A program made the translations under genes and the position numbers. The notes below the pieces were generated by a model. It worked only from the letters and a program-made list of their open reading frames with translations, ran no database searches and was not told where the DNA came from. DNA of 64,000 nucleotides from an uncultured Actinomycetes bacterium (GTDB lineage: Bacteria; Actinomycetota; Thermoleophilia; Gaiellales; JAICJC01): NCBI GenBank assembly GCA_963708725.1, contig CAVPTL010000006.1:96226-160225 (forward strand). Direction: 5' to 3'. Positions 42,834 to 55,680 of this stretch are shown here, piece after piece. The stretch's first letter is position 1. The number at the start of each line of letters is the position of its first letter.

Positions 42834-44507
42834 TCAGCCGCCGGGGACGGCTTGTCGGGCGGCTTCGTCTTTCATGTACTGGTGGACGAAGGCGATGGCC
42901 ATGCTTCCTTCGCCAACAGCGGCTGCGACGCGTTTCACCGGCCCGAGCCTGACGTCGCCGCAGGCAAACACACCGGGGACGCTGGTCTCGAGCAGGTAGG
43001 GGTCGCGGTCGACCTGGCCGCGGGCCTCCTCGGGCACGTCGCTGCCGGTGAGCACGAAACCGTGATGGTCGAGTGCGATCTCGGGCGGCAGCCATTCGGT
43101 TTGGGCGTCGGCGCCGATGAAGATGAACAGTCCGCCGGACTCGACCCGCGTGGTTTCTCCCGATTCGCCGTTCGAGACGTCGATCGCCTCCAACACCGTG
43201 TCGCCGTGTACCTCCACGACCTGGCTGCGGGTCTGCACGTGGATGTTGGAGCGCGCTGCGATCTGATCGACCAGGTAGCGCGACATGCTCCGGTCGATCC
43301 GCTCGCCGCGGCAGAGGATCGTGACCGTGCGGGCGTAGGTCGAGAAGAACAGGGCGGCCTGCCCCGCCGAGTTACCCGCCCCCACGATGTGGACGTCGAG
43401 GCCATGGACGCTCGAGGCTTCGCTTCGGGCGGCGCCGTACGAGATGCCCTTGCCGACCAGTCGTTCGAATCCCGCGATCGGCAGGTGGCGCCAGCTCACA
43501 CCGCAGGCCAGGATGATGGTGCGCGCCTTGAGCACGTCGCCGCCGTCGAGGTGAACCTGGCGCGCGGTGGCGTCGAGTCGCCCGATCGACCGGGTTACGA
43601 GGATCTCTGCGCCCAGTCGCCGCGCCTGCTGGAAGGCGCGGCTTGCCAACTCGTCACCGGAGACCCCCGATGGAAAGCCGAGGTAGTTCTCGATCCGCGA
43701 CGACGTCCCCGCCTGGCCACCGGGCGCTTCGCGCTCGATCACGATCGTGCTCAACCCCTCCGATGCTCCGTACACGGCGGCCGCGAGGCCCGCCGGCCCG
43801 GCGCCCACGATCACGGTGTCGTACTCGGCCAGCGAGGCCTCGGTGTCGAGGCCAAGCAGCTTGGCGACCCGGCTCAGCTGGGGCCGCACCACGGTCTTTC
43901 CGCCGACCACCCGGATCACGGGACAATCCTCGGCGGCCGGCAGGGCTTCGCCCCAAAGCTCATCGGCATCCGGGGAGTCGGGCGTGATCCATGTGAACGT
44001 GACCTGGTTTCGGTCGAGGAAGCGCCTCAGCTGCGAGCACGACTCTTCCCAGCGCTGTCCCACCACGATCGCGCGCGGTGGCGGCTGGTCGGCGGTGATG
44101 CCCTGCAAGCCGCCGATCCGCTCGCGCGCGAGCATCCCCAGTTTGACCCCGACCTCGGGCGTCGAGGACGCGATCGCGTGGTAGTGCTGGGCCGAGACGC
44201 GCATCACCCGCGCCGGCTCGGTCGCGCGAAATCCAAACGGGAACGTGGTTCCAAGGGCGATCGGCACTTCCCCGATCAGGTCGCCGGCACACCGTCCGCC
44301 CACGATCCGCTCGACGCCGTCGACGTGCGCGACGGTCTCGAGGCATCCTTCGAGCACGGCGTAGAGCGCGCGCTCGTCCCCCTCATGAATGACGTACTCG
44401 CCGGGATTTACGCGGATATCCGCGACCAGCGGCGCCAGCCGCTCACGCTCTTTGGGACTGAGAATCTCGAAGATCGAGACGCCGGCAATCTCGTCCGCGG
44501 TGACCAT
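42834..44507 (-). CDS. cNMP-binding-domain-containing thioredoxin-reductase-like flavoprotein (no redox CxxC)
   Basis: 557 aa from MVTADEIAGVSIFEIL. The cNMP domain has ..IHEGDERALYAVLEG..GDLIGEVPIA... The FAD motif is VIVGAGPAGLAAAVYGASEG and the NAD(P) motif is HIVGAGNSAGQAALF. The TrxB CATC position reads SYGAARSE. The longer ORF 42834..45824 was rejected. Confidence 0.85.
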   Translation of the reverse strand: MVTADEIAGVSIFEILSPKERERLAPLVADIRVNPGEYVIHEGDERALYAVLEGCLETVAHVDGVERIVGGRCAGDLIGEVPIALGTTFPFGFRATEPARVMRVSAQHYHAIASSTPEVGVKLGMLARERIGGLQGITADQPPPRAIVVGQRWEESCSQLRRFLDRNQVTFTWITPDSPDADELWGEALPAAEDCPVIRVVGGKTVVRPQLSRVAKLLGLDTEASLAEYDTVIVGAGPAGLAAAVYGASEGLSTIVIEREAPGGQAGTSSRIENYLGFPSGVSGDELASRAFQQARRLGAEILVTRSIGRLDATARQVHLDGGDVLKARTIILACGVSWRHLPIAGFERLVGKGISYGAARSEASSVHGLDVHIVGAGNSAGQAALFFSTYARTVTILCRGERIDRSMSRYLVDQIAARSNIHVQTRSQVVEVHGDTVLEAIDVSNGESGETTRVESGGLFIFIGADAQTEWLPPEIALDHHGFVLTGSDVPEEARGQVDRDPYLLETSVPGVFACGDVRLGPVKRVAAAVGEGSMAIAFVHQYMKDEAARQAVPGG

Positions 44508-44627
44508 GACGACAAGCCTATCGAGTGGCCGCCGGGCGAGGTGGGGGATCCGTTGGGACGATCCGCCATAATGCGTCGGTCTGCATGGCGCCCAGCGGCG
44601 CCTATCGCCACAAGAAAGGCTTGCCAC

Positions 44628-46205: not shown

Positions 46206-46895
46206 ATGCGTGAACGCCCGTACACCCTGCTCAGCTGCAGCATGTCGATGGACGGCTACATCAGTAGCGCCAGCTCGCGGCTGCTGCTTTCGAACGACGC
46301 CGACTTCGATCGAGTGGACGCCGTTCGTGCCTCGTGCGATGCGATCCTGGTCGGTGCGACGACTGTGCGGGTGGATGATCCGAGGCTTCTGGTGCGGTCA
46401 CGGGAGCGTCGCGATGAGCGCACGGCACGCGGACTCGGGTCGTCGCCGATCAAGGTGACGGTCACCCGGCGCGGCGAGCTCAGCCCACAGGCGAACTTCT
46501 TCACCGCCGGCGACGTCGAGAAGCTGGTGTACTGCCCGAGCTCGGGGGTGCATGATGCCTGCGCGCGACTCGAGCCTGCGGCCGCGGTTGTGGACGGCGG
46601 CCGCGCGGTGGATATGAGCAGGGTCGGCAGCGACCTTGCGTCCCGCGGCGTGCAGCGGCTGATGGTTGAGGGCGGCGGCAACGTGCACACCCAGTTTTTG
46701 ACCGACAATCTCGTGGACGAGCTGCAGTTGGTTGTCGCTCCCGTGTTCGTCGGCGACTCCAAGGCTCCCAGGTTCGTACGTGACGGGTGCTTTCCCTGGA
46801 GCACCGGGCACCGCGCGACGCTGGCCGAGGTGACCCAGATCGGAGACGTCGTGCTGCTGCGCTACGCGCTGTCGTCGCGGTTTGAGACCGACTGA
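46206..46895 (+). CDS. RibD C-terminal-domain reductase family protein (diaminohydroxyphosphoribosylaminopyrimidine reductase-like)
   Basis: ..LLSCSMSMDGYIS.., ..VRASCDAILVGATTVRVDDPRLLVR.. and ..RLMVEGGGNVHTQFL..DELQLVVAPVFVG.. are RibD_C/DHFR-like motifs. Confidence 0.8.
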   Translation: MRERPYTLLSCSMSMDGYISSASSRLLLSNDADFDRVDAVRASCDAILVGATTVRVDDPRLLVRSRERRDERTARGLGSSPIKVTVTRRGELSPQANFFTAGDVEKLVYCPSSGVHDACARLEPAAAVVDGGRAVDMSRVGSDLASRGVQRLMVEGGGNVHTQFLTDNLVDELQLVVAPVFVGDSKAPRFVRDGCFPWSTGHRATLAEVTQIGDVVLLRYALSSRFETD

Positions 46896-46899
46896 CCGG

Positions 46900-49329
46900 T
46901 CATGGCGAGCCGCCGGCTCGTGCATCCGGGCTGAACGCCCCCAGGAAGCGGTCTCGGAATGCGCTCATCCGCCACACGGGCGCCGCGGGAGCCGGGCGCA
47001 TGCCGTCGCCCCAACCCCAGCTCGAGATCCGGCGCAGCACTTCTGGGTCGTGGGCGATGATCGACACCGGCACGTCGTGGTTGGTGCCGAATCCTGTGAC
47101 GCCGTGCGACGGCTGGTGGTCGCCAAGCACGATCAGCACCAGGTTCTTGTTGCCATAGTGGCGGACGAACGAGAAGAGTGCGCGCATCGAGTACTCGATC
47201 GAGTGGGCGTACCCCTGCTGCTGGTCGGCGAGTCCGCTCTGGTCGACCGGCAGCGTGTTGAAGATGGAGCCGTTGCCGACCTTGTTCCACGGGACCATCG
47301 GCGGTATCCGGGTCCATGGAAAGTGGCTGGACACGGTGTCGACCTCGGCGAACACCGGGCGCCGGTGGGGCTTTGCCAGCTCCAGGCGCTGAAGGGCGAG
47401 ATAGGTGTACTGGTCGGGCATGGAGGCATACGCGTATGTCGGGCCGTGATAGCCCACGTCGGTTCGGTTGTACACCCGGTCGTAGTGGTAGAAGGCCATC
47501 CCCTGCGGCCAGGGGCGGTTGTCGGGCGGCACGTCGTCGATGACCCTCCACCCGGCGCGGTTGAACGCCTGGCTGAGCGTGAACCGGTGGCTCGCCATGA
47601 GCTGGTCGTAGCGACTTGGAAAGTCGACCCAGACGCCCGCCTGCATCGTGGAGTGGGCCAGCCAGCTGATCCCGCCGAAGGTGGGCGAGGTGAGCCAGCC
47701 GCTTCGAGACCCGAAGCCGGCGGCGTTCAGTTGCTGGGTACCGCTGTCCAGGACGTCATCCACCCGCGGCGAGTAGGACGACCCCTCGACCGCCACCTGG
47801 CCGTAGCTCTCGACGAACACCAGCAGGACGTCCTTGCCGCGGAGAGCGGTCAGCAGCCGGTTGCCGGGCGTCGAGCGGTAGGGGTCGTGGCGGATCTGGG
47901 CGGCGAAGATCGCCCCGTCGTTGAGGTCGGTGTTCACCGTCCGCACCTCCTGCACCACGAGGGAGGCTGCGCTCATGGAGGCGATGGGCGTCCCGGAGAC
48001 GAACTGCGCGCCCAGCGCCCAGAACACCAGCCATGCGCCGCCGAGCGCGGTGACCACGCGCAGCGACCACAGGCGGTGGCCGGTGGAAACGCGCACCATG
48101 CGCCGCAGCGCCAGCGTCGGAAGCGCGAGCGCGACGATCACCAAAAGCGCCAGCCCGACCTCGACCAGATCGGCGCGCGTGCTTCCCACCGTCTCGCGCA
48201 GCGTCTCGGCCCCGATCGAGGCGTAGCCCCAGTCCTCCACGGGGTTGAACGGGCGGTCGAACGCCGTCAGGAAGCCGGCGTCGAGCAGCTTCACCACCAC
48301 CAGCAATCCCAGCAGAGGACCGGCGACGAACGGTACGAACCGCCGAAACCGGTCCGGCAGGGCGAGCGCCAGCGCGACGATCACCAGGGCCTCGATCGGG
48401 AGCCTCACGAACGCGTCGACATGCACACGTTGCGGCTGGATCGGAGCGAGCAGCGCGACCCACACGATCAGGAGCGCCACGATGGTGAGCGCGACCCCGG
48501 TGCCCGCCCGCAGTCGTTGGTGCGGGCTGCCGGCCGGCCGGACCGGGGGCAGATCGGGATCGGGGCTCCGCTGCTCGCCGGTCGACGCACTCTCGGCGGA
48601 CGCGTGTCGGTGGCGCCAGAGCCAGTACACGTCGCGGCCAAACGACTCGGCCAGCAGGGCCAGCACCGTCGCCAGCCCGAGGCGCTCGAGGGCCAGAGGC
48701 AGGACGCCCGCCGCGGCGATCACCAGCGCGATGCCCACCGCCGCGGTCACGACCTTCCGCCAGTCACGCCTGGGAAGCTGCCCGCGCATCCATGGGAACG
48801 GCCAGCCCGCCGCCAGGAATGCGTATCGAGCTGCGCCGATGGCGAGCACCCACCAGCCGACCGTGGGGGCGACGTACAGGCTGAGCGTCAGGATCAGAAA
48901 CGCGTCGACCTCGCCGTCAAGCGCAGCGCCAAACCGCGACTCGGTGTGGGTGTTCCGTGCGACCCGGCCGTCGACGAAGTCCAGGCACAGCGCGGTGGTC
49001 GCGAGCGCCACCAAAGCCGCCACCGACGTGTGACTGGCGAAGGAGTCCGCGGTCAGCGCCGCCACGTCGACCACCAGCGCCGCTCTGACCACGGTGACCC
49101 AGTCGGCCGGGCCCAGCCCTTCCCAGCCGTCGAGGGCGAGGCTGCGCGCGAGCAGCGTGTACAGGAGGACTCCACAGACCAGGCCAACCACCCATCCCGT
49201 ACTGCTCAGCCCGACCGTCGCAGCAAGCGCCGTGAGCATGAGCAGCTGGACGACCGGCATCACGGCCAGACCGACGTGAACCGTTCTCAGCGTCCTGTCA
49301 TACTCGGCCATGTGAAGGGTACCGGGCAC
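46900..49329 (-). CDS. Fusion protein: CDP-alcohol phosphatidyltransferase (N-terminal) + multi-TM linker + sulfatase/alkaline-phosphatase-superfamily domain (C-terminal)
   Basis: N-terminus: ..DFVDGRVARNTHTESRFGAALDGEVDAF.. is the DG(x2)AR(x8)G(x3)D(x3)D motif. C-terminus: ..VLLVFVESYG.., ..GGISWLAHSTMQ.., ..VDTVSSHFPW.. and ..VLIVLGDHQP.. are sulfatase-type motifs. 809 aa. Confidence 0.8.
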   Translation of the reverse strand: MPGTLHMAEYDRTLRTVHVGLAVMPVVQLLMLTALAATVGLSSTGWVVGLVCGVLLYTLLARSLALDGWEGLGPADWVTVVRAALVVDVAALTADSFASHTSVAALVALATTALCLDFVDGRVARNTHTESRFGAALDGEVDAFLILTLSLYVAPTVGWWVLAIGAARYAFLAAGWPFPWMRGQLPRRDWRKVVTAAVGIALVIAAAGVLPLALERLGLATVLALLAESFGRDVYWLWRHRHASAESASTGEQRSPDPDLPPVRPAGSPHQRLRAGTGVALTIVALLIVWVALLAPIQPQRVHVDAFVRLPIEALVIVALALALPDRFRRFVPFVAGPLLGLLVVVKLLDAGFLTAFDRPFNPVEDWGYASIGAETLRETVGSTRADLVEVGLALLVIVALALPTLALRRMVRVSTGHRLWSLRVVTALGGAWLVFWALGAQFVSGTPIASMSAASLVVQEVRTVNTDLNDGAIFAAQIRHDPYRSTPGNRLLTALRGKDVLLVFVESYGQVAVEGSSYSPRVDDVLDSGTQQLNAAGFGSRSGWLTSPTFGGISWLAHSTMQAGVWVDFPSRYDQLMASHRFTLSQAFNRAGWRVIDDVPPDNRPWPQGMAFYHYDRVYNRTDVGYHGPTYAYASMPDQYTYLALQRLELAKPHRRPVFAEVDTVSSHFPWTRIPPMVPWNKVGNGSIFNTLPVDQSGLADQQQGYAHSIEYSMRALFSFVRHYGNKNLVLIVLGDHQPSHGVTGFGTNHDVPVSIIAHDPEVLRRISSWGWGDGMRPAPAAPVWRMSAFRDRFLGAFSPDARAGGSP

Positions 49330-49337
49330 CTGGTGTT

Positions 49338-50166
49338 TTGGATTGTTCGCGCTGCACCTCGAGCCCGGGCGGTCCGCCCGCAGACGGTCGCGATTTGAGC
49401 AGGGACACGCCAGCGCCCGACGTCGAGCCCCTCCGGCGAGCGCAGGAGGCGGCGTACGCCCCGGGCGAGTACGTCGGCCAACAGAGCTTCATGCGCGCCA
49501 GCGAGATCCGGGCGCTGGCCGGGCGGGCCGGCATCGCCGAGGGCACCTCCGTGCTCGACCTGTGCTGCGGGATCGGTGGGCCGGGGCGGCTGATCACGCG
49601 GGAGCTGCGGTGTGTGTATCTGGGAATCGATCGCGACCCCGACGCGATCGCGATCGCCCGCACTCGGGCTGACGGCCTACCGTGCCGGTTCGAGGTCGGC
49701 GAAGTGCCGCCCCTGCCGCGAGGCCCATACGACGTGGTGCTGATGCTGGAGACCATGCTCGCTTTTGCGGATAAGGAGCTGCTGCTTGGTGAGATCTCCG
49801 GCGCGCTCGGCGCCGGAGGCCGGTTTGCCTTCACGATGGAGGCGGGGCGGCCGCTGAGCGCCGCGGAGCGGGAGCGGATGCCCAACTCCGGCACGGTATG
49901 GCTAACGCCGCTCGCGACCATGAGCCGGATGCTGGAGCGGGCCGGGTTGGTCGTGCGCGGGGTGGATGACTGCACCGAAGCCCACGGCGCGGCGGCGGCC
50001 TCCCTCCTGGATGCCTACGCGGCCGACGCGCCGGCGATCGCGTGCGCAGATCGGGCAACCAGCGCTGGATGATCTGCTGGCCGCACACCGGTTGTGGGTG
50101 CAGTGGCTGGACAGCGGGCGCGTGCGCAAGGTCTCGGTGGTCGCCGAGAAATCCGAAGCCGGGTAA
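49338..50166 (+). pseudogene. Class I SAM-dependent methyltransferase with probable +1 frameshift near its 3' end
   Basis: ..VLDLCCGIGGPGRLITREL..YLGIDRDPDAIAIA.. is SAM motif I. The annotated frame stops at 50072. A well-coded continuation AQIGQPALDDLLAAHRLWVQWLDSGRVRKVSVVAEKSEAG* runs in the frame of ORF 49966..50166. Confidence 0.6.
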
Positions 50167-50176
50167 GGGTTGGCGC

Positions 50177-51136
50177 TCACGCATCGGCGGCGCTTTCGGG
50201 CCGGTAGATGAGGCGCCCGCGCCTCGCCGCCCGCCACCCGGCGAGCCACCCCGCGACCAGCACGAGCCCTCCGGGGAGGCTGGCTGCGATCACCATCACG
50301 CCATAGACGACGGCGGTCGCGGCGCCACGACCCGCGCCCAGGCCGGCCGCGGCGAACACCCATGCGGTGGCGCCCTCGCGCGGTCCCCAGCCGCCGATGC
50401 TCGGCAGCACCATGCCCAGCATCGCCAGCAGCGCCAGCGGCAGGAGCCGCGAGACCGGTGCGGTGACGCCGGCCGTCCGCGCGGCGATCAGGAACATGAC
50501 CGCGTAGCCCAGTACGGCCACGGTCGATGCAAACGCGACCGCGATCAACGCGTTCCTGCGAACCAGACCGTCGCGGATGTCGGCCACCACCCGGCTCCGG
50601 GCTCGCGCCCAGCGCGAACGCCCTCGTCCCCCGTGCATGCGGTCAACGAGAATGACGCAGCCGGCCGTTGCGACCAGCGCAACCGCCACCAGCGGCATGT
50701 ATGAGCGCACCGGTGAGGGCAGCACCAGGAGGACGGAGATCGTCAGCACCACCTGGACGACCTGTCCGGCAGTTCGCTCCCAGGCAACGGCCCGCAGCCC
50801 GCGGCCGACGTCTTGCACGTCGCGACCGTGGCTGACGCCGCGATGGATGTCACCGGCGACGCCACTCGGGAGCGTGACGTTGAGGAACAGCGCCCGGTAG
50901 TAGGCCGCGACGGCGGCGGGGAGGGAGAGATCCACGCCCAGGCCGCGGGCAACGATCTTCCATCGCCACGCACAGCAGACGGTGCTGACGAGACAGACGG
51001 CCGCCGCGGCCAGGAGGGAACGACCGTCGAGCGCGCGCACGCCGTCGAGGAACGGGCCGCTGCCGAGACGCCAGATCACCACCACGAGCGCGGCGGCTGC
51101 GATCACCGGACGGGCCCACCGAAGGCTGCCCCTCAC
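50177..51136 (-). CDS. UPF0104 / lysylphosphatidylglycerol-synthase-TM-region-like (flippase-like) membrane protein
   Basis: 319 aa, polytopic. ..CCAWRWKIVARGLGVDLSLPAAVAAYYRALFLNVTLPSGVAGDIHRG.. is the family's core motif. Its start overlaps the upstream gene's stop (51133-36). Confidence 0.8.
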   Translation of the reverse strand: MRGSLRWARPVIAAAALVVVIWRLGSGPFLDGVRALDGRSLLAAAAVCLVSTVCCAWRWKIVARGLGVDLSLPAAVAAYYRALFLNVTLPSGVAGDIHRGVSHGRDVQDVGRGLRAVAWERTAGQVVQVVLTISVLLVLPSPVRSYMPLVAVALVATAGCVILVDRMHGGRGRSRWARARSRVVADIRDGLVRRNALIAVAFASTVAVLGYAVMFLIAARTAGVTAPVSRLLPLALLAMLGMVLPSIGGWGPREGATAWVFAAAGLGAGRGAATAVVYGVMVIAASLPGGLVLVAGWLAGWRAARRGRLIYRPESAADA

Positions 51137-51954
51137 GGCAACACCAGCAGGTCGGCGTGGTCGATCGTGACGGCCAGGCAGCCGGCCCTGGCCTCCCGCA
51201 GACGCCGGCTTTGGTAGCGGCCGGCGTCAGTGGTCAGCGCGGGCTCCTGCTCACACGCAGCGCCCACCCAGCCGGCGAGCCACTCGACGGCCAGGGCCGT
51301 ATCGGCGACTCCCAGGCGCCACGGGCTCGGCCTGACGATGACCTCGGCCCCGAGCCGGCGAAACGCGTCTGCGGCGGCCTCGGCGGCATCCGGGCCGAGC
51401 AGGCGCCCGCGCCGCGTCGTGCGGCGCTGGTGCGCATCGAACGCTGCCGCCAGGCGTGAGTCGAGCGGATCCTCCGCGAGCCACTGGACGCGGCCGGTGA
51501 CCGAGAGTGTGAGGAGCACCGGGCACCCAGCTCCCGCACACGTCTGCACCAGCCTGCCCAGCTCGTCGGCCGTCAGCAGGTCGAGCAGCGCCGAGGAGGT
51601 GATGAGCGCCGCGCCGGCCAGCTGGTCGCGGCCGAGTCGTGTGACGTCGGAGAGCCTCGTCTCGACGGTGACCGCCGACCCGTCGGCGGCGGGGCCGGGC
51701 CGGTCGGTCTCGGCGACCGTCAACAGGTCAGGGTCGCGGTCGTGGAGGACCCACCGCTGCGGCCCGGCCAGGAGCGGGGCGAGCCACCGGCCCATCCCGC
51801 CGCTGCCGCAGCCGAGGTCGTGGATGACCAGCCGGTCGCCGGCCGGCAGGCGGGGGAGAAGGTGCGAGACGAGCTGCCGGGATCGGGCGACAGCGTCTGC
51901 CCGCTCGCGCAGGTCGAGCCAGGCGGGGCTGACCGGGATCGTCTCGACGGTCAT
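51133..51954 (-). CDS. Class I SAM-dependent methyltransferase
   Basis: 273 aa from [13 protein letters not shown]. ..LVIHDLGCGSGGMGRWLAPLL..WVLHDRDPDLL.. is SAM motif I. The ATG overlaps the GT stop (ATGA at 51954-51951). The upstream part of ORF 51133..52416 was rejected. Confidence 0.75.
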   Translation of the reverse strand: MTVETIPVSPAWLDLRERADAVARSRQLVSHLLPRLPAGDRLVIHDLGCGSGGMGRWLAPLLAGPQRWVLHDRDPDLLTVAETDRPGPAADGSAVTVETRLSDVTRLGRDQLAGAALITSSALLDLLTADELGRLVQTCAGAGCPVLLTLSVTGRVQWLAEDPLDSRLAAAFDAHQRRTTRRGRLLGPDAAEAAADAFRRLGAEVIVRPSPWRLGVADTALAVEWLAGWVGAACEQEPALTTDAGRYQSRRLREARAGCLAVTIDHADLLVLP

Positions 51955-53012
51955 CACGCCACTGCCGCGATCACGTCTGCGACGGCGGACACGGTGGTCG
52001 GCCAACCCGCGAGCGACTCGCGCCGCTCGCGCGCCGCCCGCCGCAGCCGCCGGCGCAGGTCGCTGTCCTCGAGCCAGGATCGCAACGCGTCGCTGAGCGC
52101 CGCGGCATCGCCGGGCGGCACGAGGAGGCCCGGTCGGACGCTTTCGGCGCCATGACCGAGAGCCTCCGGCACCCCGCCGACCGCGGCGGCCACCACCGGC
52201 AGTCCTCGTGCCAGCGCTTCGGTGACGACCATCCCGTACGTCTCGAAGCGCGACGACAGCACCAGCACATCCGCGGCGCTGTAGCTGCCGGCGAGCTCGG
52301 CTCCCGCCTGTGGACCCGGGAAACGCACCCGGCCGCTCAGCCCCCCAGCGGCGACGGTGTGACGCAGACGTTCGACGAATATCGGGTCGCGTTCCAGGCT
52401 GCCGACACACAGGCACTGCCAGTCAAGGTCATTCAGGGTCGCCAGTGCCTCGAGCAGCACGTCATGCCCCTTGCCGGGTATGACCGCCGCGACCGAGAGC
52501 AGAGAACCGGCGGTTGGGGTGCCCGGCGCGAGCCCGGCGGCGTCGACGCCGGGTTCGGCGACGTGGACGCGTTCGACCGGCAACCGGTAGAGCTGGAGGA
52601 GGACTCGCCGGGCCCACGCGCTGGTGGTGACGACCGACGCGGCGGCGGTGAGCACCGCCCCCTCCCGTTCCCGCGGGCCGTCATCCGCGGTGCCTTCGCC
52701 CAGCGGCATGTGCACCAGCACGACCAGCCGCAGACGGCGAGCCGCCGGGACGAGCACGTCGGGAGAGGGCGAGGCGACCAGACCGTCGACGAGGACGATG
52801 GCGCGATCGGGGATCCGGCAAAGGACATCCGCCAGCGCGGCGTGCGATGGTGCATCGGGCCACGGCCACGACCCGGCGACTTCGTGGATATGCACCGCCC
52901 AGCCCGCGGCGGCGAGGCCGTCGCACACCTGGCGGTCGTAGGCGTTGCCCCCGCTCGGCCGCGCCCGGTCGCCGATCCCTGCCGGGACGACAACGTGCAC
53001 TTCGGCGGTCAC
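51954..53012 (-). CDS. Glycosyltransferase, GT4 (group 1) family
   Basis: 352 aa. ..[11 protein letters not shown].. and ..[39 protein letters not shown].. form the E-x7-E region of retaining GT-B enzymes. Confidence 0.85.
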
Positions 53013-53407
53013 AACCCGCGCTCGTAGCTCGCCGAGGCGATGTGCGACTCGTGCAGCGTGACGACCAGCCCGTCGAGCTCGCGCGCGGCATCCCCGAGGG
53101 CACCGGCATGCGCGCGCTCCGCCAGCCGATCCGCGATCAGCCGGGCGAGTGCCTCCGTTGTGGTGTTGATGCCGGCGAGCGCCGGTTCGTCATCGAGATT
53201 GCGGTAGCTGAACGCCGAGAGCACCGCATGCAGCTCCTCGGTCGCTCGGCCGATGTCGACGACGATGCCATCGGCGTCGAGCTCCGCGCGCCTGAACGTG
53301 GCGTCGACGACATAGGTCGCACCGTGGAGCCGCTGTGCGGGCCCGAACGCCTCGCCTCGCAGGCTGTGGGCGATCATCATGTGGTCACGGACGGTCACGC
53401 TGAACAC
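53009..53407 (-). CDS. 6-pyruvoyl-tetrahydropterin synthase (PTPS/QueD)-fold protein, non-canonical active site
   Basis: 132 aa. ..DHMMIAHSL.. aligns to the QueD F.AAHRL motif. ..[12 protein letters not shown].. aligns to KCGRLHGHSF, so the catalytic Cys and the second His of HGH are both Ala. It overlaps the GT start by 4 nt. Confidence 0.8.
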
Positions 53408-53411
53408 GGCT

Positions 53412-54392
53412 CTAGCCCCCGCCGTAGGTGATCGTGTGACACACGGCCGGGAGGCTCCCCGAAGCCAGCTGGGCCATCACCTCGGGAAGCTCGTCGAACT
53501 GCGACTCGCCGGTGAGGAGCGCATCGAAGGCGGGGTCGCGCAGCAGCTCGAGGGCGATCGCCATGCGGTCGGCGGCCGTGCGGCGCAGGGCCCGTGCGGG
53601 GGAGACGACGCCGACCTGGCTCGAGCGGATGCCGAGGCGGCCGGAGTGGAACGCTCCTCCCAGCGACAGCCGCACCTCGGTGTCGCCGTACCAGCTGAGG
53701 TCGAGCACGGTGCCCTCGGCAGCGAGCAGGTCGAGCGCGCGCTGAAGGCCCGCTGATGTTGCACTCGTGTGTACGGCGAGATCGCAGCCGCCGTCGGCCT
53801 CCTCCGGGAGGGCGAAATCGACCCCGAGCGCAGCCGCGATCTCTGCCCGCTGCGGATCGACATCCACGAGGGTGACGCGCATCGCCGGAAACCGTTGGAG
53901 CAGCCGCGCCACGCAGCAGCCGAGCATCCCCGCGCCGACGACGACAACCCGGTCGCCGACCAGCGGGGCAGCGTCCCACAGGGCGTTGACCGCCGTTTCG
54001 ACGGTGCCGGCGAGGACAGCGCGAGCGGGTGGGATGTCCTCCGGCACGATCGATACGGCACCGTCCGGAACGACATACACGGTCTGGTGCGGGTAGAGGC
54101 AGAACACGGTACGGCCGCGCAGGTCGGGCGGCCCTTCCTCGACAACGCCGACGTTCAGATAGCCGTACTTGACCGGGCCCGGGAAAGCCCCATCCTGGAA
54201 CGGCGCCCGCATCCTCACACGCTGGTCCGGCGGCACGCCGCCGCGGAACACGAGCGTCTCGGTGCCGCGGCTGATCCCCGATCGTACGGTGCGAACCAGA
54301 ACGTCGGCCGGCCCGGGTTCGGGCAGTTCGACCGGACGGATCTCGCCACAACCGGGCGCTCGCAACCAGAACGCGTGTGCCTCCCTACTCAT
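53412..54392 (-). CDS. Zinc-type/MDR-family alcohol dehydrogenase-like oxidoreductase
   Basis: 326 aa from [10 protein letters not shown]. ..[15 protein letters not shown].. and ..[17 protein letters not shown].. (Rossmann) are MDR motifs. The ATG at 54392 overlaps the upstream methyltransferase stop by 8 nt. Confidence 0.8.
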
Positions 54393-55095
54393 GGCCGCTC
54401 GCCTGCTGTGGTTCGTCGCCGGTGCAAGCGGCGCGGGACCCGGCCGCCAGGAACGTCGTCCCAAAGACCAGCTCCGTCCAGGAGCAATCCGCCAGCGTCT
54501 CCTGCATGGCTGTACGAATCACCTCCCACGGACGGCGCATGATCCACTCGTCGATGGAACCGAATGGCCGCACAACCGCGGTTCCGAGCTGCGCCAGCCA
54601 CCAGGGAGCGTTGTCGGGAGCCTTCAGATCCAGCACGACCCAGCGCCCACCGGCGGAGAGCGCGGCGGCGCCGCGGGTGATGACGTCTCCGCATTCAGGC
54701 ACCTGTGTGAGGGCGTAGGTGGAGAGGATCGCGTCGACCTCGGGTGGGAAGTCGAACTCGGCCGCGTCGGCGTGTACGAGGGTGATGTTGCGCCAGCCAT
54801 GGGCATCCATCCGCTGCCGGGCTTGAGCGAGCATCGCGTCGGTCAGATCGACGCCGACGATTCGGCCCCCGGGACCGATCAATCGCTCGATCAGCGAGAA
54901 GTTCAGCCCGGTGCCGCAGGCGATGTCGACCACGTTGTCACCCGGGCGAAGCCCGAGTGCTTGGAGGGCCCGGAGGCGGTGTGACCGCTGCGGGTATCCG
55001 GGAGCGGGGTAGAACCGGGAGGTGAGGTCGTAGTGCTTTGCCTTCTTGCGGTATGTCCCGATCAGGCGCTCTCGCCTATGGTCGGTCGTGCTCAC
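54385..55095 (-). CDS. Class I SAM-dependent methyltransferase (first gene of six-gene operon)
   Basis: 236 aa. ..VVDIACGTGLNFSLIERLIGPGGRIVGVDLTDAMLAQAR.. is SAM motif I plus the post-I acidic residue. Confidence 0.8.
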   Translation of the reverse strand: MSTTDHRRERLIGTYRKKAKHYDLTSRFYPAPGYPQRSHRLRALQALGLRPGDNVVDIACGTGLNFSLIERLIGPGGRIVGVDLTDAMLAQARQRMDAHGWRNITLVHADAAEFDFPPEVDAILSTYALTQVPECGDVITRGAAALSAGGRWVVLDLKAPDNAPWWLAQLGTAVVRPFGSIDEWIMRRPWEVIRTAMQETLADCSWTELVFGTTFLAAGSRAACTGDEPQQASGHE

Positions 55096-55212: not shown

Positions 55213-55680
55213 CTACGAATTGGATCCGGCCGGCGTCGCGGACTCGACCGCGGCCTTGATCGCCACCATCTCACGATCCATGACACGCTTGATCCTGCCG
55301 TTGAGAACGCTTCCCGGGATCGCGCGCATGATGCTCTCGAGGTCGACCTCAACCCACATCATCGCCTCGGTCTCCCGCTCGTCTATCGGCTCGAACTTCA
55401 TTCCCCAGCGCGCCGCGGAGGTGCCCATCGGCCCGGCGAACGCCAGGCGGCGCTGCGCGTCGACCACGGTCACGTTCTGGCTGCGGTGGCGACTGGATCC
55501 GAGTATTCCCTTCGCCCGCTGCTCGATTCGCGACCCGGGCCGAAGCGCGGCCCCGTCGCTGACCCAACACTCACGCACCGTTGGCGCCCACTCTGGCCAG
55601 CGTCCGACGTCGCAGATGTACGTCCACACTTCCGGGAGGCTGCTACGGATTGTCAGGCGGCTCTCTGATCTAATCGCCAT
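55213..55680 (-). CDS. SRPBCC-family (polyketide cyclase/dehydrase-like) protein
   Basis: 155 aa. ..IRSSLPEVWTYICDVGRWPEWAPTV.. is typical of the SRPBCC ligand-binding fold. Confidence 0.75.
   Translation of the reverse strand: MAIRSESRLTIRSSLPEVWTYICDVGRWPEWAPTVRECWVSDGAALRPGSRIEQRAKGILGSSRHRSQNVTVVDAQRRLAFAGPMGTSAARWGMKFEPIDERETEAMMWVEVDLESIMRAIPGSVLNGRIKRVMDREMVAIKAAVESATPAGSNS

Follow-up and report, generated by a model that had tools for sequence, protein, structure and literature searches.

A CDP-alcohol phosphatidyltransferase fused to an alkaline-phosphatase-fold module as the candidate core of a proposed make-flip-transfer cassette in Actinomycetota

Main finding

A 64-kb stretch of DNA from an uncultured actinomycete of the order Gaiellales (64,000 nucleotides of contig CAVPTL010000006.1, hereafter the window) carries on its minus strand a gene that joins a CDP-alcohol phosphatidyltransferase (CDP-OH) to a membrane-anchored module with the fold of the alkaline phosphatase (AP) superfamily. 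Our preferred reading, to which we assign a probability of roughly 55%, is that this bifunctional enzyme belongs to a make-flip-transfer cassette with a phospholipid head group of its own, probably made from GTP, and would catalyze in it the first and the last steps of a diacylglycerol (DAG) carrier cycle. The cassette points to an undescribed lipid-linked modification of the cell envelope. The component domains are of known kinds; the synthase-flippase-transferase cassette and its association with the GTP pathway appear to be undescribed, and a full-text literature search, with subscription-only papers outside it, returned no description of the fusion, of the triad or of the link to GTP cyclohydrolase II (GCH II).

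Architecture and integrity of the fusion gene

The fusion gene and the parts of its product are as follows (AF2, AlphaFold2; TM, transmembrane; aa, amino acids; ORF, open reading frame; pLDDT, predicted local distance difference test):
46900-49329 (-), fusion gene, a single intact 809-aa ORF from GTG, likely 803 aa from the ATG at 49311
49129-49329 (-), two extra N-terminal TM helices before the CDP-OH core (residues 1-67; AF2 helices H5-39 and H43-67, hydropathy)
48613-49110 (-), six-TM CDP-alcohol phosphatidyltransferase core (residues 74-239; PF01066, Foldseek, C-terminal motif)
48904-48981 (-), CDP-OH catalytic signature (residues 117-142; regular-expression match)
48496-48612 (-), Arg/His/Pro-rich interdomain linker of variable length, predicted to be cytoplasmic (residues 240-278; 8 Lys and Arg, low pLDDT, variable alignment columns)
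48001-48495 (-), five TM helices forming a predicted membrane anchor of the LtaS/EptA type (residues 279-443; hydropathy, AF2 helices, MCR-1 alignment)
46903-48000 (-), predicted extracytoplasmic AP-fold domain (residues 444-809; AF2, Foldseek, hhalign, residue conservation)

The boundaries of the ORF are exactly those given in the original prediction, and its third-position GC content (GC3) of 0.89 is typical of real genes in a window with an overall GC content of 67%. Close homologues open with MAEYD (P0001, 99% identical, has 803 aa and P0002 has 800 aa), which makes the ATG at 49311, six codons into the ORF counted from the GTG, the probable true start.

There is no stop codon or frameshift in the ORF between the two halves. 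We scanned one genome per species and examined the best 80 loci in detail. Each of the 80, complete genomes such as that of Kribbella sp. NBC_00889 among them, gave one continuous tblastn match over approximately residues 4-800, and more than 120 full-length homologues are 61-99% identical to the fusion protein. The fusion of the two halves is real and was not created by assembly.

N-terminal half

The CDP-OH assignment made originally was borne out. PF01066 matches residues 75-209 with 51.6 bits against a Pfam gathering cut-off of 22, and the signature D117xxD120G121xxA124R125x8G134x3D138x3D142 is exact (PROSITE PS00379-type pattern DG..AR.{8}G.{3}D.{3}D at residue 120); the stretch DGRVARNTHTESRFGAALDGEVD begins at residue 120, with D117 ahead of it. 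All eight signature residues are kept in fused relatives down to 32% identity. The core closes with a family-specific ESFGRDVxWLW helix, a type of C-terminal motif common to the N-terminal domain of the fusion and its separately encoded orthologues. In the AF2 model of residues 1-270 (mean pLDDT 90) two extra N-terminal TM helices precede a six-TM core of the family type, with the signature on TM2-TM3; the best PDB match of this model in Foldseek is Staphylococcus aureus PgsA (7drk/7drj; target-normalised template-modelling score, TM-score, 0.72 over ~185 columns), followed by phosphatidylserine synthase (PSS) and mycobacterial phosphatidylinositol phosphate (PIP) synthase (PIPS), and all three of these enzymes use CDP-diacylglycerol (CDP-DAG). 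As judged from sequence, the N-terminal half is a bona fide member of the CDP-alcohol phosphatidyltransferase family, with a predicted PgsA-like fold. Among the NCBIfam equivalogs none passes its cut-off with this domain: the scores are 29.6 bits against 109.1 for pgsA (TIGR00560), 27.4 against 180 for archaetidylinositol phosphate (AIP) synthase, 26.8 against 107 for pssA and 21.3 against 170 for PIPS.

In one fused lineage from a JGI metagenome (P0127, 782 aa) the CDP-OH motif has degenerated to LFGKDG and lacks nine residues (alignment columns ~165-190), and the synthase half may be inactive, but the catalytic residues of the AP domain are retained.

C-terminal half

The original prediction placed the C-terminal half in the sulfatase family, among domains of the lipoteichoic acid (LTA) synthase and phosphoethanolamine transferase type, on the strength of the motifs ESYG, SSHFPW and GDHQP. 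All three motifs are present (at residues 507, 667 and 736), and the assignment holds for the family and not for the single sequence. The failure of an HMM search to support the family had been named originally as a refutation, and to the letter it applies to this one sequence but not to its family. PF00884 (Sulfatase) gives no match at E<=1, whether the whole protein or its C-terminal parts in isolation are searched, direct Pfam and NCBIfam profile searches of the C-terminal part yielded no match either, and a PDB sequence search with a shallow profile of 11 sequences returned CDP-OH enzymes only.

An exhaustive search with residues 270-809 (E<=1e-3) delineated a C-module family of 2,720 clusters at 50% identity, which includes both fused and standalone forms. 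PF00884 matches 25 of 42 diverse relatives at E<=1e-3 (best 9e-12), and these matching relatives align to the C-module of the fusion at E=1e-72 to 1e-203. With the 42-sequence family profile, the PDB search gave a marginal match to LtaP (HMMER E=0.016), and hhalign of the family profile against the Listeria LTA primase LtaP gave 92% probability (E=5.8e-7), with VESYG paired with LESFQ, SSHxPW with SSHMPF and GDHQ with GDHH. The AF2 model of residues 270-809 (pLDDT 92.3; predicted template-modelling score, pTM, 0.89) had 187 Foldseek matches in the PDB at E<=1e-3, and all 50 of those listed belong to the AP superfamily. The top match is LtaP (4uop, E=1.4e-10), full-length MCR-1 (9nww) aligns over 606 columns with its TM domain included, and the other matches comprise LtaS from three species, GacH (6dgm, 5u9z), EptA, EptC and PbgA, while true sulfatases rank below the LtaS/EptA-type enzymes.

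Because PF00884 misses the fusion protein itself, the superfamily assignment rests on transitive, profile and structural evidence. This evidence supports a C-terminal half of the AP/sulfatase superfamily, within the clade of membrane-anchored enzymes that remove phospho-head groups from lipids (LtaP, LtaS, GacH, MCR-1 and EptA), and the nearest matches (LtaP, LtaS, MCR-1, EptA) are of the very type originally named. A true, formylglycine-dependent sulfatase was rejected, as no C/S-x-P-x-R motif ([CS].P.R) is found anywhere in the fusion protein.

Residue conservation was examined over the 42 family members, which are 29-60% identical. E507, S555, D639, H669 and D737 are invariant in all 42 and H738 is present in 41, and E507, H669 and D737-H738 are in register with the ESF, SSHMPF and GDHH motifs of LtaP. 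T550, which lies in the SPT stretch pointed out originally, faces the LtaP Thr in both profile alignments; it did not prove to be invariant, being conserved in 33 of 42 members and replaced by G, V, I or M in the other nine. In the AF2 model, the helix after the central strand opens with S555. From conservation and the model, S555 is the favoured candidate for the nucleophile, with T550 as the alternative. H751, at a position comparable to the Zn-site histidines of EptA and MCR, is conserved in 21 of 42 members.

Linker and membrane topology

Hydropathy and the models together indicate ~13 TM helices in the fusion protein (2 + 6 + 5), with about nine of them after the CDP-OH signature, close to the eight or so originally counted. 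The predicted cytoplasmic loops contain 3, 6, 8 and 4 Lys and Arg residues vs. 0, 1 and 2 in the predicted outside loops. The topologies of PgsA-type and LtaS/EptA-type enzymes are known and served as a guide. Based on loop charges and these topologies, the CDP-OH site would face the cytoplasm and the AP-fold domain would lie outside, so that the two active sites are predicted to act on opposite membrane faces. Hydropathy, the positive-inside rule and homologue topology agree on this point, in line with the opposite sidedness suggested originally.

Fused and split forms

Relatives of the fusion are encoded in at least 592 species genomes. The best 80 loci are all fused and nearly all from Actinomycetota, mostly metagenome-assembled genomes (MAGs), and their lineages include Thermoleophilia, Gaiellales, Solirubrobacterales, Kribbella, Geodermatophilus, Blastococcus, Arthrobacter, Actinophytocola, Frankiales and Streptosporangiaceae. 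Cluster look-ups showed that Pseudonocardia alni and an Ornithinibacter MAG also carry family members. Cultivable hosts include Kribbella sp. NBC_00889, Geodermatophilus ruber DSM 45317, Pseudonocardia alni and Arthrobacter sp. E3. The database names of the relatives are generic (“CDP-alcohol phosphatidyltransferase family protein”, “phosphatidylglycerophosphate synthase” or “sulfatase-like hydrolase/transferase”). Only one of the 80 best loci, on a 7.6-kb contig of a MAG labelled Steroidobacteraceae (L039, 50% identity), is in a non-actinobacterial bin, and this copy may reflect binning contamination or horizontal transfer.

Many members of the C-module family are standalone proteins of ~520-590 aa. 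At the locus of one of these (P0261, 33% identical) the order is a 250-aa CDP-OH_P_transf protein, the module with a 4-bp overlap, and an LPG_synthase_TM protein. A MAG of the Gram-negative Methylococcaceae encodes LPG_synthase_TM and CDP-OH_P_transf proteins divergently from a standalone module gene, and three more split lineages have the same partners together with GCH II, PTPS, alcohol dehydrogenase (ADH)-like, GT4 or methyltransferase genes. The separate CDP-OH proteins are orthologous to the N-terminal domain in the window (BLASTP E=1e-10 to 1e-54) and share with it the C-terminal SF(G/A/V)RD..WL helix, and the genomes that host split forms span 44% to 68% GC. That split versions occur as adjacent, translationally coupled genes supports a functional coupling of the two halves.

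In an Ornithinibacter sp. MAG a single 1,073-aa ORF (P0309, MDF3046462.1) comprises GCH II, the CDP-OH transferase and the AP module, and either a natural triple fusion or an erroneous read-through may lie behind it. Its cluster-mates at 90% identity have 809 aa and are preceded, at a distance of 92 bp, by a separate GCH II gene (compare L095, 8193-11430). This ORF is strong evidence for adjacency and weak evidence for a natural triple fusion.

Gene neighbourhood

The genes around the fusion in the window are given below, each with the number of loci in which a counterpart lies within 10 kb of the fusion, among the 50 related loci with complete 10-kb flanks:
50177-51136 (-), LPG_synthase_TM protein (MprF-flippase-like), third core component of the cassette, PF03706 at 92 bits; 47/50
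51133-51960 (-), methyltransferase-like protein, weak Pfam match, 4-bp overlap with the LPG_synthase_TM gene; 33/50
51954-53012 (-), GT4 glycosyltransferase, PF00534 at 110.7 bits; 45/50
53009-53407 (-), atypical PTPS-fold (T-fold) protein, PF01242 at 83.8 bits; 35/50
53412-54464 (-), MDR/Zn-ADH-like oxidoreductase, Pfam and NCBIfam profiles; 41/50
54385-55095 (-), S-adenosylmethionine (SAM) methyltransferase, first gene of the six-gene operon, Pfam profile; 20/50
49338-50072 (+), SAM methyltransferase divergent from the fusion, Pfam profile, start probably downstream of the TTG; 37/50
46206-46895 (+), RibD_C pyrimidine-reductase-like protein convergent with the fusion, PF01872 at 126 bits; 35/50
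55213-55680 (-), SRPBCC/Polyketide_cyc2 protein, more loosely associated, Pfam profile; 18/50
GCH II, in related loci; 27/50
Unrelated window neighbours; 0/50

The six-gene operon had been recorded originally as a mere neighbour of the fusion. It is part of the same conserved system, and the link had been understated and the connection to GCH II missed. On the minus strand the order is methyltransferase, ADH-like, PTPS-fold, GT4, methyltransferase-like and LPG_synthase_TM, and these genes are packed tightly (50177-55095). Neighbours overlap by 4 bp at 51133-51136 and again at 53009-53012, and only 4 bp separate the PTPS-fold gene from the ADH-like gene (53407, 53412), an arrangement that suggests translational coupling. 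The start of the fusion gene, at 49311 or 49329, is only 9-27 bp from the TTG (49338) of the longest ORF of the divergent methyltransferase, and the start of the latter is therefore probably mis-set and lies further downstream.

Gene order and orientation of the cassette are shuffled between lineages. In one locus (L095) the set is a single operon of nine genes that all run in the same direction, and GCH II lies 92 bp upstream of the fusion there. An unbiased neighbour census revealed no other widely conserved partner besides GCH II and an Acyl_transf_3 membrane acyltransferase. The conserved neighbours include no cytidylyltransferase, in agreement with a CDP-DAG donor.

GCH II, encoded at L008 (10186-10836) and 36 other related loci, usually adjoins RibD_C, and no RibD-type deaminase was seen in the cassette clusters. 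The RibD_C protein of the window has the archaeal DARPP reductase as its best NCBIfam match (138 bits vs. a cut-off of 186). Of the accessory proteins, the PTPS-fold protein, which reads MIAHSL...RLHGATY, is conserved best, with a median identity of 82% across loci. The canonical Zn-site motif of PTPS is C..HGH, and the window protein has neither the catalytic Cys nor the second His; with the Cys and one Zn-ligand His missing, identification of 53009-53407 as a canonical PTPS or QueD is doubtful, and by its sequence it is probably neither.

In the two fused members that diverge most (32-33% identity), the accessory set is the same except for additional creatininase-family and methylenetetrahydrofolate reductase (MTHFR)-like genes, and such neighbours support a pyrimidine or pterin type of head-group chemistry. 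Genes of these two kinds (creatininase-family, ArfB/MftE-like, and MTHFR-like) occur in some divergent lineages at L094 (3568-4368 and 10434-11447) and L090 (7016-7444). The creatininase/ArfB-like gene of some loci led us to consider a formamidopyrimidine (FAPy)-forming variant of GCH II; this was rejected, as the canonical Tyr at the position of RibA Tyr105 is kept in 26 of 27 cluster GCH II proteins.

An Acyl_transf_3 (OafA/OatA-like) membrane acyltransferase gene is located less than 10 kb from the fusion in 17 of the 80 loci, and directly downstream of it in L002 (3049-4227). Its presence hints at an O-acylated glycoconjugate outside the cytoplasm as the final product.

A long ORF at 42834-44560 (-) appears by eye to encode a flavoprotein resembling thioredoxin reductase (GAGPAG...CGDV), preceded by a segment of cyclic-nucleotide-binding type; its place next to the fusion is not conserved (0 of 80 loci).

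Proposed mechanism

Domain identities, conserved catalytic residues, predicted topology, fused and split gene forms and gene co-occurrence suggest the following cycle, in which we infer every substrate, which way the flux runs, the flipping and the acceptor. The PgsA-like N-terminal domain would work on the cytoplasmic face and move the phosphatidyl group from CDP-DAG to a dedicated alcohol, giving a specialised phospholipid that the GT4 enzyme and the methyltransferases encoded nearby may decorate. The LPG_synthase_TM protein, like the flippase domain of MprF, would then carry this lipid to the outer leaflet. There the C-module would attack the lipid phosphodiester, hand the phospho-head group to an acceptor in the envelope and free DAG, using an active site composed of a putative metal centre (E507, D737, H738), H669 and the Ser/Thr nucleophile. 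The alcohol would probably be derived from GTP by way of GCH II, the RibD_C reductase, the PTPS-fold protein and the ADH-like protein. It may be speculated that the ribityl-5-phosphate chain produced by GCH II and a RibD_C-type reductase is similar to the polyol phosphates that PgsA and PIP synthases accept.

A more specific version can be put forward only tentatively, and we rate it as clearly less probable than the cassette as such. It posits an undescribed phospholipid class, with a GCH II-derived 2,5-diaminopyrimidinone or pterin-like ribityl- or ribosyl-phosphate head group, glycosylated and methylated, that would serve as a flipped donor for envelope decoration in many Actinomycetota and some Proteobacteria. 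If true, the envelope would carry a modification akin to teichoic acid but derived from a nucleobase, produced by a DAG carrier cycle that is complete in itself.

Several observations weigh against the proposed cycle. With the N-terminal domain far below all NCBIfam equivalog cut-offs, the alcohol is not readable from sequence. GCH II is near the fusion in only 27 of the 50 loci with full flanks, and no GCH II gene lies within the 64-kb window, the enzyme being encoded elsewhere in the source genome. At least one minimal split operon (L082) is entirely devoid of head-group genes, and the alcohol could thus be a common metabolite in some lineages, and one standalone module of Actinoplanes type has no partner genes nearby. 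That standalone PF03706 proteins act as flippases is an assumption drawn from MprF, either T550 or S555 could be the nucleophile, and sequence cannot separate transfer from hydrolysis for the C-module.

Alternative explanations

The last of these points leads to the most serious alternative, namely that the C-terminal domain is a hydrolase of the phospholipase-C/phosphodiesterase type, that the lipid carrier serves only to export a phosphorylated GTP-derived molecule, and that this molecule is freed in soluble form outside. AP-fold enzymes with a Ser nucleophile are often hydrolases, the evidence for making and flipping the lipid applies equally to this possibility, and the cluster contains no obvious acceptor-building genes. 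Nevertheless, the nearest structural relatives with the same five-TM anchor are all transferases (LtaS, LtaP, GacH, MCR-1 and EptA), with the exception of the non-enzymatic PbgA. Furthermore, members of the Acyl_transf_3 family typically O-acylate extracytoplasmic glycans, and the Acyl_transf_3 genes noted in 17 of 80 loci suggest a polymer-bound product. We consider hydrolysis rather unlikely, though it deserves to be kept in mind beside the proposed transfer.

A fused type-I LTA route appears less probable still. The N-terminal domain would be a PgsA that makes phosphatidylglycerol phosphate, the C-module would be the “missing” actinobacterial LtaS that polymerises glycerol phosphate from phosphatidylglycerol, and the GTP-pathway neighbours would be unrelated. 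The best structural matches, PgsA for the N-terminal domain and LtaP/LtaS for the C-module, are those that such a route predicts, the L082 operon requires no special head-group genes, and LTA occurs in some Actinobacteria, in which clear LtaS orthologues have been reported to be missing (PMC3196553). On the other hand, the N-terminal domain scores far below the pgsA equivalog cut-off (29.6 vs. 109 bits), and co-operonic linkage with GT4, PTPS, ADH-like, RibD_C and GCH II genes is tight across lineages, split forms included. The hosts Kribbella, Geodermatophilus, Pseudonocardia, Arthrobacter and Ornithinibacter, a limited sample, are not reported LTA genera, the split module is also found in the Gram-negative Methylococcaceae MAG, and the Thr that acts as nucleophile in LtaS is not invariant in the C-module family.

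It is very improbable that the C-module is a non-catalytic lipid-binding sensor or regulator like PbgA/YejM that tunes the fused synthase. Full-length PbgA is indeed among the Foldseek matches (6xlp, 6v8q), but these matches are poor (TM-scores 0.25-0.27), and the invariance of the metal ligands, H669 and S555 over such divergent members indicates selection for catalysis. Finally, an assembly or sequencing error joining two genes has a negligible probability, given the continuous ORF with its uniform GC3 and the continuous homologous loci and full-length proteins described above; nothing supports it for the window, and P0309 may show such a read-through only at a different junction (GCH II/CDP-OH).

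Significance

LtaS, EptA/MCR-1 and GacH draw on bulk lipids, whereas in the make-flip-transfer cassette the transferase is fused to, or encoded beside, the synthase of its own donor lipid and a flippase-like protein. This arrangement implies a dedicated, lipid-linked route of export, and the consistent link to the GCH II pathway suggests a head-group chemistry not known in lipids or wall polymers. The proposal bears on how Actinobacteria without LtaS build phosphodiester-linked polymers of the envelope. It also gives a function-predictive context to thousands of proteins labelled “CDP-alcohol phosphatidyltransferase family protein” or “sulfatase-like hydrolase/transferase”. The cassette is common in soil Actinomycetota and, because it is present in cultivable strains too, directly testable.

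Comparison with known systems

The LTA synthase LtaS and the primase LtaP of Firmicutes resemble the C-module in having five N-terminal TM helices followed by an extracellular AP-fold domain, with the motifs E (xESxx), SSHxP(F/W) and GDH in register, and in the inferred attack on a glycerophospholipid phosphodiester that frees DAG. Identity to the C-module is only 12-15%, however, PF00884 does not detect the fusion protein, and the Thr at the nucleophile position is not invariant in the fusion family, which has an invariant Ser five residues later. In contrast to LtaS and LtaP, the module is fused to or in an operon with its own CDP-OH synthase and a flippase-like protein, the family is linked to GTP-pathway genes, and the split module extends to Gram-negative lineages. 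The gene context argues for a head group other than the phosphatidylglycerol-derived glycerol phosphate of LtaS and LtaP.

EptA, MCR-1 and EptC likewise combine a five-TM anchor with an AP-fold domain in the periplasm, which removes the phospho-head group of a phospholipid. They use bulk phosphatidylethanolamine and have no dedicated donor synthase; they also possess a Thr nucleophile and extra Zn-site histidines, whereas in the fusion family the Thr varies and H751 is kept in only half of the members (21/42).

PgsA shares with the N-terminal domain the six-TM core fold (TM-score 0.72 to 7drk/7drj) and the complete D-x2-DG-x2-AR-x8-G-x3-D-x3-D motif. The fusion domain differs in its low equivalog score (29.6 vs. 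109.1 bits), the two extra N-terminal TM helices, the family-specific C-terminal SFGRD..WLW helix and the fused AP module.

The closest parallel to the pairing of synthase and flippase is MprF, the lysyl-phosphatidylglycerol synthase and flippase, in which a dedicated head-group synthase is coupled to a PF03706 flippase domain that brings a special lipid to the outer leaflet. MprF aminoacylates existing phosphatidylglycerol by means of aminoacyl-tRNA and is without an extracytoplasmic transferase, whereas the cassette encodes its flippase-like protein separately and has a synthase of the CDP-OH type. Streptococcal GacH, with a multi-TM LtaS-like domain, makes a single transfer of a lipid phospho-alcohol onto a wall glycopolymer, as the C-module may do; it differs in its TM anchor, its use of bulk phosphatidylglycerol and the lack of a fused synthase.

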